Part shown: piece by piece, positions 3,510-7,892 of the stretch
How positions within the stretch are numbered: position 1 is the first letter of the stretch
Layout of the letters: every line of letters starts with the position of its first letter
From: a virus
Lineage: Duplodnaviria; Heunggongvirae; Uroviricota; Caudoviricetes
Length of the DNA: 25,915 bases
IMG/VR virus record: IMGVR_UViG_2671180841_000012
Span: 1-25,915 of that record
Reading direction: 5' to 3' (one strand)
Translations under genes and position numbers: made by a program
The notes under the pieces: generated by a model
Seen by the model: only the letters and a program-made list of their open reading frames with translations
What the model was told of the DNA's origin: nothing
Databases searched by the model: none

Positions 3510-5775
3510 AGCCTCCGGGCGTTTTGTCCCTCCGTCAGCATTTGCCGCAGGCACCGGTAAGGCGTTTACCGGTGCTTATGCATGGAACGCGCCACGCGAG
3601 GCTGTCGGGCGCGAAAGACCTCTTACACGTGACGAGATGCGTCAGGTGCAAGGTGTTTTATCCACGATTAACCGCCTGCCTTACTTTTTGCGCTCGCTGT
3701 TTACTTCACGCTATGACTACATCCGGCGCAATAAAAGCCCGGTGCACGGGTTTTATTTCCTCACATCCACTTTTCAGCGTCGTTTATGGCCGCGCATTGA
3801 GCGTGTGAATCAGCGCCATGAAATGAACACCGACGCGTCGATGCTGTTTCTGGCAGAGCGTGACCACTATGCGCGCCTGCCGGGAATGAATGACAAGGAG
3901 CTGAAAAAGTTTGCCGCCCGTATCTCATCGCAGCTTTTCATGATGTATGAGGAACTCAGCGATGCCTGGGTGGATGCGCATGGCGAGAAAGAATCGCTGT
4001 TTACGGATGAGGCGCAGGCTCACCTCTATGGTCATGTTGCTGGCGCTGCACGTGCTTTCAATATTTCCCCTCTCTACTGGAAAAAATACCGTAAAGGACA
4101 GATGACCACGAGGCAGGCATATTCTGCCATTGCCCGTCTGTTTAACGATGAGTGGTGGACTCATCAGCTTAAAGGCCAGCGTATGCGCTGGCATGAAGCG
4201 TTACTGATAGCTGTCGGGGAGGTCAATAAAGACCGTTCTCCTTATGCCAGTAAACATGCCATTCGTGATGTGCGTGCGCGCCGCCAGGCAAATCTGGAAT
4301 TTCTTAAATCGTGTGACCTTGAAAACAGGGAAACCGGCGAGCGCATCGACCTTATCAGTAAGGTGATGGGCAGTATTTCTAATCCTGAAATTCGCCGGAT
4401 GGAGCTGATGAACACCATTGCCGGTATTGAGCGTTACGCCGCCGCAGAGGGTGATGTGGGGATGTTTATCACGCTGACCGCGCCGTCAAAGTATCACCCG
4501 GCACGTCAGGTCGGAAAAGGCGAAAGTAAAACCGTCCAGCTTAATCACGGCTGGAATGATGAGGCATTTAATCCAAAGGATGCGCAGCGATATCTCTGCC
4601 GTATCTGGAGCCTGATGCGCACGGCATTCAAGGATAATGACTTACAGGTCTACGGTTTGCGTGTCGTCGAGCCACACCACGACGGAACGCCGCACTGGCA
4701 TATGATGCTTTTTTGTAATCCACGCCAGCGTAACCAGATTATTGAAATCATGCGTCGCTATGCGCTCAAAGAGGATGGCGACGAAAGAGGAGCCGCGCGA
4801 AACCGTTTTCAGGCAAAACACCTTAACCGGGGCGGTGCTGCGGGATATATCGCGAAATACATCTCAAAAAACATCGACGGCTATGCACTGGATGGTCAGC
4901 TCGATAATGATACCGGTAGGCCGCTGAAAGATACTGCGGCGGCTGTTACCGCATGGGCATCAACGTGGCGCATCCCGCAATTTAAAACGGTTGGCCTGCC
5001 GACAATGGGAGCTTACCGTGAGCTACGTAAATTGCCTCGCGGCGTCAGCATTGCTGATGAATTTGACGAACGCGTGGAGGCTGCACGCGCCGCCGCAGAC
5101 AGTGGCGATTTTGCGCTGTATATCAGCGCGCAGGGCGGGGCAAATGTCCCGCGCGATTGTCAGACTGTCAGGGTCGCCCGTAGCCCGTCGGATGACGTTA
5201 ACGAATACGAGGAAGAAGTCGAGAGAGTGGTCGGCATTTACGCGCCGCATCTCGGCGCGCGTCATATTCATATCACCAGAACGACGGACTGGCGCATTGT
5301 GCCGAAAGTTCCGGTCGTTGAGCCTTTGACTTTAAAAAGCGGCATCGCCGCGCCTCGGAGTCCTGTCAATAACTGTGGAAAGCTCACCGGTGGTGATACT
5401 TCGTTACCGGCTCCCACACCTTCTGAGCACGCCGCAGCAGTGCTTAATCTGGTAGATGACGGTGTTATCGAATGGAGTGACCCGGAGGTCGTGATGGCGC
5501 TCAGGGGCGCATTAAAACACGGACTGAGAACACCAAATCGTCAGCAAAGAAACGGAAGCCCGTTAAAACCACATGAAATTGCACCATCGGCCAGACTGAC
5601 CCGGTCGGAAAGAATGCAAATTACCCGTATCCGCGTTGACCTCGCTCAGAACGGTATCAGGCCGCAACGATGGGAGCTTGAGGCGCTGGCGCGTGGCGCG
5701 ACCGTAAATTATGACGGGAAAAAATTCACGTATCCGGTTGCTGATGAGTGGCCGGGGTTCTCGTTACCCATTTGA
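3499..5775 (+). CDS. A: Replication initiator A (rolling-circle, P2 gpA-like)
   Basis: Long ORF 3457..5775; start placed at the Met of MAVKASGRFVPP (3499), which overlaps the upstream stop; contains the HHDGTPHWHMM and YIAKYISKN motifs of rolling-circle initiators. In P2 the origin lies inside A; not located here. Confidence 0.88.
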   Translation: MAVKASGRFVPPSAFAAGTGKAFTGAYAWNAPREAVGRERPLTRDEMRQVQGVLSTINRLPYFLRSLFTSRYDYIRRNKSPVHGFYFLTSTFQRRLWPRIERVNQRHEMNTDASMLFLAERDHYARLPGMNDKELKKFAARISSQLFMMYEELSDAWVDAHGEKESLFTDEAQAHLYGHVAGAARAFNISPLYWKKYRKGQMTTRQAYSAIARLFNDEWWTHQLKGQRMRWHEALLIAVGEVNKDRSPYASKHAIRDVRARRQANLEFLKSCDLENRETGERIDLISKVMGSISNPEIRRMELMNTIAGIERYAAAEGDVGMFITLTAPSKYHPARQVGKGESKTVQLNHGWNDEAFNPKDAQRYLCRIWSLMRTAFKDNDLQVYGLRVVEPHHDGTPHWHMMLFCNPRQRNQIIEIMRRYALKEDGDERGAARNRFQAKHLNRGGAAGYIAKYISKNIDGYALDGQLDNDTGRPLKDTAAAVTAWASTWRIPQFKTVGLPTMGAYRELRKLPRGVSIADEFDERVEAARAAADSGDFALYISAQGGANVPRDCQTVRVARSPSDDVNEYEEEVERVVGIYAPHLGARHIHITRTTDWRIVPKVPVVEPLTLKSGIAAPRSPVNNCGKLTGGDTSLPAPTPSEHAAAVLNLVDDGVIEWSDPEVVMALRGALKHGLRTPNRQQRNGSPLKPHEIAPSARLTRSERMQITRIRVDLAQNGIRPQRWELEALARGATVNYDGKKFTYPVADEWPGFSLPI

Positions 5776-5991
5776 GTAAAAACACAACGTGATTTGATAT
5801 GGCATTGAATGGCTTATGCGGAGCAGTTATGGGGCAGCAGAAGGTCAATAGCATGCTGAATTAGAAGGCTAAATGCTATTGAGTGACTAGCATGTCGGTA
5901 AGGACAGCCGTTTGATCCGGGTCATAAAAGGCCATCCATTTAGTCTAATAAAATCATTGCGGGTAACCTTATGTCGACGCATAATTCGTCT

Positions 5992-6066
5992 TGAGCGAAG
6001 TCTTGTCAGTCTTTCATCGTATTGATGATGGGCGCAAAAAAACCACCCTGGCAGGTGGTTTTTTTG
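5992..6066 (+). ncRNA. Hypothetical small RNA (candidate antisense regulator of the 37-aa peptide mRNA)
   Basis: Promoter-like TTGCGG-N17-CATAAT (5957-5985) places a start near 5991-5993; a transcript would end at the bidirectional terminator (6036-6066). Its first 15 nt are perfectly complementary to the 5' leader of the convergent peptide gene. Purely predicted. Confidence 0.3.
6036..6066. terminator. Bidirectional intrinsic terminator
   Basis: AAAAAAACCACC-CTGGCA-GGTGGTTTTTTT: GC-containing stem flanked by an A-run on one side and a T-run on the other, so it reads as hairpin plus U-tract on both strands. Sits between the end of the A transcript and the 3' end of the minus-strand peptide gene. 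Confidence 0.7.
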
Positions 6067-6077
6067 TTTGAAGCATA

Positions 6078-6191
6078 TTAAAGCATAATGCTGACATTGA
6101 TATTACTGACGTTTACTGACAAACCACTCGGACTACCGTTTGGATAGCCAAAGAGGGCCAGAACGAGAATGCAGTAATAGCATTTCTTCAT
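6078..6191 (-). CDS. 37-aa hydrophobic small protein (candidate type I toxin-like membrane peptide)
   Basis: ATG at 6189-6191 (minus) preceded by AGGAGG four nt upstream; product MKKCYYCILVLALFGYPNGSPSGLSVNVSNINVSIML has two Lys then a ~13-residue hydrophobic stretch and a polar tail; stop TAA at 6078-6080 is followed by the terminator. The track ORF 6078..6344 is a longer in-frame extension lacking a comparable RBS. Confidence 0.55.
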   Translation of the reverse strand: MKKCYYCILVLALFGYPNGSPSGLSVNVSNINVSIML

Positions 6192-6669
6192 ATTGCCTCC
6201 TGTAAGTAGAGGGCAACTTCCACCGGTATATGCGCTTCTTAGGTGGAATGACTTTTGAGCGAAGTCTTGCCCTGAAATAATGCTCTGTTTAAACGCAAAG
6301 TGATTTGGCATATCACCGAACAGAGAGCCGGAAAAACACAACATATAGTATGTCGTTGTTTCTAGGCATACATTCTATGTTGTGTAACAAGGGCTTTGCA
6401 TTAAACATGTTTGAGATTTTATTGATGTAGCTCAAAGTAAAAAACAGAGACTACGGATGATAAGGTCTTGAAAGCAATGTAAATTTTTTAAAGTTGCCAA
6501 TTGCTTAAAAATGTACAGTTGCGGTATGGCGTACTTAAAAAGCTATGCATGCAACAAGTGAATGTTTTTGCATGCGTTGGGGATGTCCGTTCAGGCGGCG
6601 TGCGGTCAGGACTGGTGCGGATCCATAGTATCTATGCAACTGCATTAAAACCGCCCCGTGAAGCGGGCG

Positions 6670-6688
6670 GGCGAGGCGGGGAAAGCAC
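6670..6688. other. cos site (P2-type 19-nt cohesive end)
   Basis: Sequence GGCGAGGCGGGGAAAGCAC matches the P2 cohesive-end sequence as I recall it, in the expected place just upstream of Q. Its presence internal to the element fits a prophage permuted from att. Confidence 0.6.
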
Positions 6689-6857: not shown

Positions 6858-7892
6858 TCAGCCGTTGTCAGTGTCCAGTGAGTAGTTTTTAAAGCGGATG
6901 ACCTCCTGACCGAGCCAGCCGTTTATTTCCCGAATCCTGTCCTGTAACGGGATTAGCTCATTGCGGACAAAGACCTTTGCCACTTTCTCAATATCGCCCA
7001 GTGACCCGACGTTCTCCGGCTTGCCACCCATCAACTGAAAGGGGATGCGGTGTGCGTCCAGCAGGTCAGCGGCGCTGGCTTTTTTGATATTAAAAAAATC
7101 GTCCTTCGTCGCCACTTCACTGAGCGGGATAATTTTAATGCCGTCGGCTTTCCCCTGCGGGGCATAGAGAAACAGGTTTTTAAAGTTGTTGCGGCCTTTC
7201 GACTTCACCATGTTTTCGCGAAGCATTTCGATATCGTTGCGATCCTGCACGGCATCGGTAACGTACATGATGTATCCGGCATGTGCGCCGTTTTCGTAAT
7301 ACTTTCGGCGGAACAGCGTGGCCGACTCATTCAGCCAGGCAGAATTAAGGGCGCTGAGATATTCCGGCAGGCCGTACAACTCCTGATTAATATCCGGCTC
7401 CAGCAGGTGAAACACGGAGCCGGGTGTGAAGGCTGTCGGCTCGTTGAAGGACGGCACCCACCAGTAAACATCCTCCTCCACGCCACGGCGGGTATATTTT
7501 GCCGGTGAGGTTTCCAGTCTGATGACCTTACCGGTGGTGCTGTAACGCTTTTCCAGAAACGCATTACCGAACACCAGAAAATCCAGCACAAAACGGCTGA
7601 AATCCTGCTGGGAAAGCCACGGGTGCGGGATAAACGTTGAAGCCAGAATATTACGTTTGACGTAAATCGGTGAGCTGTGATGCACGGCAGCACGCAGGCT
7701 TTTTGCCAGACCGGTAAAGCTGACCGGCGGCTCATACCATCTGCCGTTACTGATGCACTCGACGTAATCCAGAATGTCACGGCGGTCGAGTACCGGCACC
7801 GGCTCGCCAAAGGTGAATGCTTCCATTTTCGGGGCGCTGGCGGTGATTGTTTTTGCCGCAGGTCGCGGTGTTTTCCCTTTTTTCTTGCTCAT
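6858..7892 (-). CDS. Q: Portal protein (P2 gpQ-like)
   Basis: 344-aa minus-strand ORF, the same length as P2 Q; start overlaps the stop of P; first gene next to cos. Confidence 0.88.
   Translation of the reverse strand: MSKKKGKTPRPAAKTITASAPKMEAFTFGEPVPVLDRRDILDYVECISNGRWYEPPVSFTGLAKSLRAAVHHSSPIYVKRNILASTFIPHPWLSQQDFSRFVLDFLVFGNAFLEKRYSTTGKVIRLETSPAKYTRRGVEEDVYWWVPSFNEPTAFTPGSVFHLLEPDINQELYGLPEYLSALNSAWLNESATLFRRKYYENGAHAGYIMYVTDAVQDRNDIEMLRENMVKSKGRNNFKNLFLYAPQGKADGIKIIPLSEVATKDDFFNIKKASAADLLDAHRIPFQLMGGKPENVGSLGDIEKVAKVFVRNELIPLQDRIREINGWLGQEVIRFKNYSLDTDNG

Follow-up and report, generated by a model that had tools for sequence, protein, structure and literature searches.

A mobile cassette between gene A and cos of a P2-like prophage carries a conserved 37-codon peptide gene and a predicted antisense RNA, and is probably organised like a type I toxin-antitoxin locus

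The window analyzed in this study is a stretch of viral DNA of 25,915 nucleotides (nt), IMG/VR record IMGVR_UViG_2671180841_000012, which is a P2-like prophage of Escherichia coli MNCRE44 with its integration site adjoining cpxP. The stop end of the replication gene A is located at 5775. The portal gene Q lies on the minus strand, with its end at 6858 and a terminator of its own at 6852-6837. The two genes are separated by 1082 bp, for which RefSeq holds no annotation. A 37-codon open reading frame (ORF) is located in this interval at 6078-6191 on the minus strand. The ORF lies within a mobile cassette of about 545 bp (5946-6490), of which it is the coding half, and the cassette is probably organised like a par-type type I toxin-antitoxin (TA) locus. 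A 19-nt cohesive-end sequence, GGCGAGGCGGGGAAAGCAC, which we take to be the P2 cos site, is present at 6670-6688. The linear record of phage fiAA91-ss starts exactly at this sequence, where it is annotated as cosL. The distance from the end of the cassette to cos is about 180 bp. The interval between gpA and gpQ is the cargo hotspot of P2 described by Rousset et al. (PMC9122126), and the positions of A, cos and Q agree with the initial annotation, which had placed the ORF in the A-cos hotspot.

The ORF starts with an ATG at 6191-6189 and ends with a TAA at 6080-6078, and its translation is MKKCYYCILVLALFGYPNGSPSGLSVNVSNINVSIML. The Shine-Dalgarno (SD) sequence AGGAGG is found on the same strand at 6201-6196 and is followed by CAAT and then by the ATG, leaving a spacer of 4 nt. 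The initial annotation did not give the strand. It had described the same 37-residue peptide gene, with an identical translation, and the AGGAGG 4 nt before the ATG, and these were confirmed. The ORF had also been called an orphan and the only credible gene between A and cos, and neither description held. The ORF is not an orphan because homologues occur in other phages and in plasmids, and a conserved predicted small RNA (sRNA) gene lies alongside it.

The boundaries of the cassette are set by the homology between the elements that carry it. Homology runs from the promoter of the predicted sRNA to a point upstream of the FNR sites of the mRNA promoter, and the flanks are unrelated in each element. 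Six lineages were found, with about 70% DNA identity to one another. The cassettes of P2-like prophages and phages form four allele groups that are 85-100% identical. An N15-like phage-plasmid contig with protelomerase, RepA and a CI-like repressor (L035; IMG/VR UViG_3300011594_000020) carries the cassette at 5677-6230, between repA and the protelomerase gene, with the sRNA co-oriented with repA. As the cassette is directly downstream of a replication gene in this contig, its position is as in P2. A Kluyvera georgiana contig (L052) holds the cassette beside secretin, Zot and G2P, which is a filamentous-phage context, and a metagenome contig (L060) holds it beside a secretin gene. It was also found in a Citrobacter contig (L053) and in an Enterobacter IncFIB plasmid (L055). 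In PLSDB, 392 plasmids carry the cassette, and about 390 are IncFIB/IncFII plasmids of Klebsiella pneumoniae, represented by L054. Among the complete E. coli genomes, 152 of 5426 carry it (about 3%), including E. coli W. The distribution of the cassette is restricted to mobile elements, and it moves among unrelated ones.

The cassette has escaped annotation in nearly all of these records. None of the 60 E. coli genome matches listed has an annotation for it, it is unannotated in 29 of the 30 PLSDB rows listed, and one phage record alone calls the 37-codon coding sequence, as hypothetical. A degenerate back-translated pattern gave no new lineage in IMG/VR, no match in GTDB representative genomes and only the P2 type in metagenomes. 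The whole plasmid pKPN3 of K. pneumoniae MGH 78578, a strain with differential RNA sequencing (dRNA-seq) data (PMC10907235), is without the cassette. Text searches of the literature for the sRNA seed, the target or the peptide sequence returned nothing relevant.

The coding evidence was taken from the six lineages. The ATG, an open frame of 37-38 codons and the stop codon are kept in all of them, with GGAGG or GGTGG exactly 4 nt upstream of the ATG in six of six. The other five frames all contain stops. The only length change inside the ORF is a 3-nt insertion, and the adjacent spacer between the stop codon and the terminator varies among the lineages by lengths that are not multiples of 3. 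Substitutions are in excess at third codon positions, and 46% of the ORF is invariant across the lineages. At the homologous loci synonymous change (pS 0.61) is higher than nonsynonymous change (pN 0.20) across three phylogenetically independent pairs (Fisher p = 8.5e-11), and pN/pS is 0.26-0.48 in all fifteen pairwise comparisons. By its pattern of substitution, the ORF codes for a protein and is subject to purifying selection. It is extremely improbable that the ORF is untranslated and that the region is conserved only as RNA, as the 3' part of a non-coding transcript: the gene is indeed very short and was never called by PGAP, but the low pN/pS (p≈1e-10), the in-frame indel, the closed state of the other five frames and the conserved start, stop and SD spacing all stand against this alternative.

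The peptide consists of an MKK n-region, a 13-residue h-region, a conserved GYPxGSxSG motif and a tail of alternating polar and apolar residues. The invariant residues are M1, C7, I8, L11, L13, G15, Y16, P17, S22, S25 and S29. The charge of the n-region is +1/+2, and the tail is uncharged and always 15 residues long. A single hydrophobic helix of about 13 residues had been proposed for this peptide. The apolar stretch is present, as C4-Y16 in the window peptide (13 residues) and as 11-13 residues across the lineages, but it is too short to span the membrane. A length of 11-13 residues is short for a transmembrane helix but usual for the h-region of a Sec signal peptide, to which the stretch is a better fit, and the N-terminus may be Sec signal-like. 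In a rule-based check that took residue 22 as the last one before a putative cut, a Pro at -6 and Ser at -3/-1 were conserved in five of the six lineages. The AlphaFold single-sequence model of the peptide was of low confidence (pLDDT 60).

The peptide was compared with the protein family collections. No match was found in Pfam and NCBIfam at E<=10, no significant match in PHROGs, and no defence-system match in PADLOC; the defence protein families described for the hotspot were not matched. The Hok, Ldr, TisB, Ibs, ShoB, ZorO and DinQ families gave no significant match to the peptide in Pfam, NCBIfam and PHROGs. Among 1.84 billion representative proteins, searched exhaustively with HMMER, 7 matched, all of the same peptide family and mostly miscalled with false N-terminal extensions. 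A word search of 5.8 billion proteins with an 88-residue extended ORF returned only three miscalled relatives.

A perfect 13-nt inverted repeat (6035-6047/6054-6066) with A7/U7 runs begins eleven nt past the stop codon of the ORF. It is a predicted bidirectional intrinsic terminator (6035-6066, both strands). As minus-strand RNA it folds at -19.1 kcal/mol (z = -4.2), and as plus-strand RNA at -19.0 kcal/mol. The terminator reads on both strands because the stem includes the A7/U7 runs, and it was missed by the consensus terminator scan because the T-run falls within the stem. It is 92% invariant, loop included, across lineages that are otherwise about 70% identical. The terminator had been assigned to the ORF as its own; it is present, though it is shared with the predicted sRNA. 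Over this terminator the predicted sRNA and the peptide mRNA overlap and are mutually complementary. Neither RNA belongs to a family in Rfam 15; only sub-threshold matches to RNAI and to a Phe leader were obtained, due to the terminator sequence. The 22-nt core of the terminator, AAACCACCCTGGCAGGTGGTTT (within 6033-6068), recurs without change in a ColE1-type origin (L038, 5920-5946), as the terminator of an RNAI-like element. The origin was judged unrelated to the cassette, and the identity of the core may reflect common ancestry or convergence.

On the plus strand, a predicted sRNA promoter is located at 5946-5992. It consists of AATAAA at 5947-5952, a -35 element TTGCGG at 5957-5962, a 17-nt spacer and a -10 element CATAAT at 5980-5985. 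GCATAATT and AATAAA are invariant in the six lineages. The flanking DNA is unrelated, and homology starts abruptly at the A/T block. From the position of the -10 element, the transcription start site (TSS) of the sRNA would be near G5993. The predicted antisense sRNA of about 75 nt (5993-6067, plus strand), which is the antitoxin candidate, has a 5' seed GAGCGAAGUCUUG, a variable hairpin, and a terminator hairpin with a U-tail. The predicted fold is -28.8 kcal/mol (z = -4.2), with the 5' seed single-stranded. The seed is 88% invariant versus only 13% for hairpin 1, which nonetheless forms in every lineage. The only sigma-70-like match in the consensus promoter scan was at 6009-5981 on the minus strand (CTGACA-17-AATTAT), antisense to the sRNA promoter. 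Its -35 element is not conserved in the other lineages, and the match is probably due to chance.

The sRNA seed is one copy of a direct repeat. Copy 1 (5991-6005), TTGAGCGAAGTCTTG, is an exact 15-nt repeat of 6255-6269. Copy 2, in the 5' untranslated region (UTR) of the peptide mRNA, is the predicted sRNA target (6255-6272, minus strand), which is 64-78 nt upstream of the ATG and overlaps the SD-like element GGGCAAG at 6266-6272. The two RNAs cross the direct repeat in opposite senses, which makes the sRNA complementary at its 5' end to the leader of the mRNA. The 13-nt core of the repeat, CAAGACTTCGCTC, has no third copy in the window with up to 2 mismatches allowed. The seed has no other target within the window and no target in the K-12 nrdD region.

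The helix between the sRNA and the leader is 14-17 bp long, with an energy of -25.6 to -33.9 kcal/mol, and it forms in every allele. The target is 84% invariant, and within the cassette only the terminator is more conserved than the seed and the target. Four of four independent substitutions within the helix keep the pairing as U·G or G·U, an outcome expected of one type of substitution in six. On the sRNA side these are C14 to U opposite G and C15 to U opposite G; on the target side they are A to G opposite U in L035 and C to U opposite G in L052. L060 has changes in the two partners together, so that position 14 is C:G, U·G or U:A among the lineages; these covariation counts are small, as they come from six lineages. 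The pairing-preserving substitutions and the covariation fit an RNA-RNA interaction rather than a repeat at the DNA level.

The same data bear on whether there is a plus-strand sRNA at all. The peptide gene could stand alone, and the 15-nt repeat would then matter only as DNA, for example as a site bound by a protein or as a scar of recombination or duplication. The sRNA promoter is absent from the consensus scan because its -35 element matches only 3/6 positions in the window allele, and this silence, together with the fact that both RNAs are predicted, is in favor of such a lone gene. A lone gene is very unlikely in view of the repeat copies, all differences between which preserve the RNA pairing, with one position fully compensatory. 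Copy 1 is also exactly 7 nt downstream of the invariant CATAAT and about 30 nt before a terminator predicted to function on the plus strand, and the conservation of the -35, the -10 and the A/T block ends abruptly upstream.

The leader of the peptide mRNA is structured. Three leader hairpins are supported by alignment folding and by explicit pair counting in 8 alleles, in which 91% of the leader cells were paired versus 36-50% on sliding the partners. Six leader pairs have compensatory changes, and the covariation is above that of 500 of 500 shuffles. The first leader hairpin (6284-6325, minus strand) is formed by CUCUGUU/AACAGAG around GGUGAU/AUCACU; 100% of its cells are paired in the 8 alleles, with compensatory pairs, and two further compensatory pairs (CC/GG) are found in L060. 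A second hairpin (6218-6248, minus strand), UUCCACC/GGUGGAA, has a conserved loop with AGCGCA and compensatory pairs across the lineages. The anti-SD GUUGCCCUCU (6208-6217, minus strand) has two alternative partners, the SD and the upstream SD-like element, to which it is equally complementary. This element reads GGGCAAG in the window, with GGUGGCA or GGUGACA in other alleles, and it shares sequence with the 5' part of the sRNA target. In 8 of 8 alleles both anti-SD helices can form (about -7 to -13 kcal/mol), and the accompanying compensatory changes differ from lineage to lineage. For the SD, folding predicts a mostly paired state (P(unpaired) 0.08-0.25).

Two mechanisms would fit this leader. 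In one, the upstream element would capture the anti-SD and free the SD, and the sRNA would prevent this capture. In the other, the upstream element would be a ribosome standby site that is occluded by the sRNA. Constrained folding favored neither over the other. Both have precedents in timP, tisB and zorO (PMC11228461, PMC13000454, PMC5397157).

The promoter of the peptide mRNA resembles a host promoter. A sensitive BLAST search found that 6390-6491 on the minus strand (L004 1501-1602) is about 80% identical to the region upstream of nrdD in 5426 of 5426 complete E. coli genomes. The matched host site is the treC-nrdD intergenic region, 5' of nrdD and in equal orientation. The six lineages have 73-82% identity to the K-12 nrdDG promoter over 73 ungapped nt. 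The FNR-2 site TTGAGctacATCAA at 6435-6422 matches 9/10 positions. The FNR-1 position is at 6404-6391, and the two FNR sites are 31 bp apart. A -10 element TAGAAT at 6377-6372 aligns without gaps to the TAAAAT -10 element of E. coli nrdDG (feature 6363-6377, minus strand). The register of FNR-2, FNR-1 and -10 is identical in all lineages. For the host promoter, FNR sites at -64.5/-34.5 were reportedly described by Roca et al. in 2008. By homology only, the mRNA would start at about 6365, which implies a leader of about 174 nt. Homology to nrdD stops about 25 nt past this start, and neither the 174-nt leader nor the ORF is related to it. The cassette seems to have captured the host nrdDG promoter as a copy; by alignment, its mRNA promoter is derived from, or of common ancestry with, that promoter. 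With its two FNR sites, the promoter is presumably switched on anaerobically.

The host nrdDG operon is activated by FNR and repressed by NrdR (PMC2892513, PMC12176259). With the NrdR probe sequence taken from PMC12176259, two NrdR-box-like palindromes were found on the minus strand of the window by consensus match, at 6336-6351 (12-14/16) and at 6370-6385 (13/16), the latter overlapping the -10 element. Their start-to-start spacing is 32 or 34 bp. NrdR box 2 (ATATGTTGT) is kept in several lineages, and several have changed or lost box 1 and the distance between the boxes. In the plasmid lineages no box reaches 12/16. Because of these differences in box 1 and spacing and the low scores in the plasmid lineages, NrdR control is only possible.

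Taken as a par-type locus, the cassette would work as follows. A minus-strand mRNA of about 330 nt would start near 6365 from the nrdDG-like promoter, with NrdR control possible in some alleles. An sRNA of about 75 nt would start near 5993 on the plus strand from its own sigma-70 promoter, and both transcripts would converge on the single bidirectional terminator. The structured leader would keep the SD paired with the anti-SD. Most likely, pairing of the sRNA would occupy the upstream SD-like element, so that the SD stays sequestered and no peptide is made. When the sRNA is depleted, for example upon prophage or plasmid loss, or outnumbered, for example upon FNR-driven transcription, the peptide would be translated. 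It would then reach the inner membrane through its Sec-type signal-like N-terminus and would harm or arrest the cell. That the cassette is confined to phages and plasmids, and moves from one unrelated element to another, fits an addiction or exclusion module.

The type I toxin-like character proposed by the initial annotation gains independent support from the predicted antisense sRNA gene, the sequestered SD and the restriction to mobile elements; the peptide matched no known toxin or defence family. That reading had missed the convergent sRNA with the 15-nt repeat, the FNR promoter of nrdDG type and the homologues outside P2. Two general features of type I systems are found. Type I toxins are shorter than 60 residues and largely hydrophobic, and the peptide has 37 residues with an apolar core of 11-13 residues. 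An RNA that pairs with the toxin mRNA is found in silico, as a predicted sRNA with a 14-17 bp helix in 6 lineages.

Several observations weigh against the type I interpretation. Both RNAs are predictions, and the toxicity of the peptide is presumed. The hydrophobic stretch of 11-13 residues is shorter than that of the classical pore-forming type I toxins, and the peptide has no match to the known toxin families. The -35 element of the sRNA promoter is weak in the window allele (3/6) and reaches 4/6 (TTGCGA) in several other lineages. Constrained folding keeps the SD mostly paired whether the target is blocked or not. As the SD is paired in either fold, folding in silico gives no switch, and processing of the mRNA may be needed instead. 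In the promoter, FNR-1 is degenerate in the window allele, with scores of 8-9/10 in the other lineages, and the NrdR boxes are weak or absent in the plasmid lineages. An anaerobiosis-dependent toxin promoter is also an odd fit for simple post-segregational killing. Finally, a natural variant without the stop codon was found in an NCBI genome (P0003, a 4.89-Mb contig), in which the frame reads through the terminator to give 68 residues; this variant may be a pseudogene or a sequencing error.

The cassette could be real and the peptide not a toxin. It would then be an accessory exported or membrane peptide in the anaerobic gut, such as an envelope modulator, a factor of superinfection exclusion or a signal, and the sRNA would set its expression threshold. 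The short h-region and the signal-peptide-like layout (Pro at -6, Ser at -3/-1 and the constant 15-residue tail) agree with such a role, as does the condition-responsive nrdDG-type promoter. Cells also tolerate de-repression of the endogenous TimP, a small peptide with which this one is compared below, and the authors of that work stop short of calling its function toxic (PMC7667032). Set against these points are the restriction to phages and plasmids with hopping between unrelated ones, the double-lock translational control and the par-like architecture, which are hallmarks of addiction-type modules. A non-toxin role is accordingly possible but, in our assessment, doubtful.

The type I interpretation, which we hold as the probable one, can be extended. 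The system could be gated by oxygen, and possibly by deoxynucleoside triphosphates (dNTP), through FNR and NrdR. The toxin would then be no classical membrane pore. The 22-residue N-terminus could be a cleavable Sec signal peptide, and the active form could be the conserved 15-residue tail of alternating polar and apolar residues, a beta-strand-like peptide set free in the periplasm that hits envelope or outer-membrane biogenesis. The cassette would then be an addiction or abortive-infection device for the anaerobic gut. This full version is distinctly unlikely.

The cassette was compared with known type I systems, and by this comparison its overall design matches par of pAD1, while the shape of the peptide and the logic of the leader are closest to TimP/TimR. 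The par locus has convergent promoters, a common bidirectional terminator, direct repeats read oppositely and an SD in a stem-loop (PMC7472228). Like the cassette, par Fst/RNA II of Enterococcus faecalis pAD1 combines convergent promoters, one bidirectional terminator and an SD-holding stem with a location on a mobile element. The peptides are of similar size, with 33 residues for Fst and 37 for the cassette. There are two direct repeats read in opposite directions in pAD1 par and one in the cassette. The pAD1 par repeats cover the translation-initiation region of the toxin, whereas the target in the cassette is 64-78 nt upstream of the ATG. Unlike pAD1 par, the cassette is hosted by Gram-negative Enterobacteriaceae, and its mRNA promoter is nrdDG-like with FNR sites. 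The Fst/Ldr signature, with a PXXXG hydrophobic domain and a charged C-terminal tail, was not found in the peptide, which has no Pfam match and an uncharged tail.

TimP is similarly small (38 residues in Salmonella; 41 in the E. coli K-12 annotation), with a Sec-signal-like N-terminus. Its tail is polar and rich in Asn and Ser, and its first 11 residues resemble those of the cassette peptide, MKxxx[FY]CI.... In timP/TimR, the 5' UTR is targeted by a short sRNA that pairs in trans, and long-range interactions in the leader free or sequester the SD (PMC7667032, PMC11228461, PMC13000454). Homology to TimP was rejected, as BLASTP gave no match and hhalign gave a 6% probability over 11 columns. The Rfam model RF00126 (ryfA) had no match at E<=1 or at the gathering threshold. 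TimR is divergent and upstream, whereas the cassette sRNA is convergent and downstream. The timPR locus is a core chromosomal locus, and the cassette is solely on phages and plasmids. Since the cassette belongs by these comparisons to neither par/Fst nor TimP/TimR, it is classed as a new type I TA-like family.

The zorO/OrzO, tisB/IstR-1 and ralR/RalA systems resemble the cassette in their long structured 5' UTR (174 nt in zorO; about 174 nt implied here). In these systems the 5' UTR is inert alone, and the sRNA pairs over about 16-20 nt well 5' of the ribosome-binding site (PMC3919570, PMC5397157, PMC4041452). They differ from the cassette in that their toxins are unrelated, their gene arrangement is another one and there is no common terminator. 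Their control is by SOS or constitutive and not by an nrdDG-type FNR promoter. With the E. coli nrdDG promoter the cassette shares the register, but downstream it has the unrelated leader and the 37-codon ORF instead of nrdD.

If this interpretation is correct, the cassette would represent an undescribed type I TA family in Enterobacteriaceae that was missed by PGAP, Pfam, NCBIfam, Rfam 15 and PADLOC, although about 3% of complete E. coli genomes and hundreds of clinical Klebsiella IncF plasmids carry it. It would also be a Gram-negative example of the par (pAD1) design. The tie of a toxin promoter to the nrdDG regulatory region and FNR would suggest oxygen control, and perhaps nucleotide-pool control, of addiction or phage exclusion. 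Two large surveys of the P2 hotspot were protein-centered, without mention of sRNAs or type I systems. The gpA-gpQ hotspots of P2 that seem empty to such surveys can, by our prediction, hold RNA-based cargo.

Three further features of the A-Q interval were recorded. A 30-nt direct similarity of 73% was found between 5780-5809, just past the stop codon of A, and 6291-6320, in the first leader hairpin. Its alignment score is only about 3 standard deviations over shuffles, which is not clearly beyond chance; the similarity could have been left behind by a duplication, or could provide a second complementarity given read-through of the A transcript. The DNA between the cassette and cos (6500-6669) is specific to the allele group of the window and contains an 11-nt inverted repeat (6547-6557/6565-6575) and no conserved ORF. 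In the alleles of about 86% identity, from P2-like relatives (L001 3637-4788; L005 3954-6128), the cos side of the cassette carries an ImmA/IrrE metallopeptidase gene and two hypothetical genes. This indicates that the cassette is the constant A-proximal element of the interval and that the cos-proximal cargo varies.

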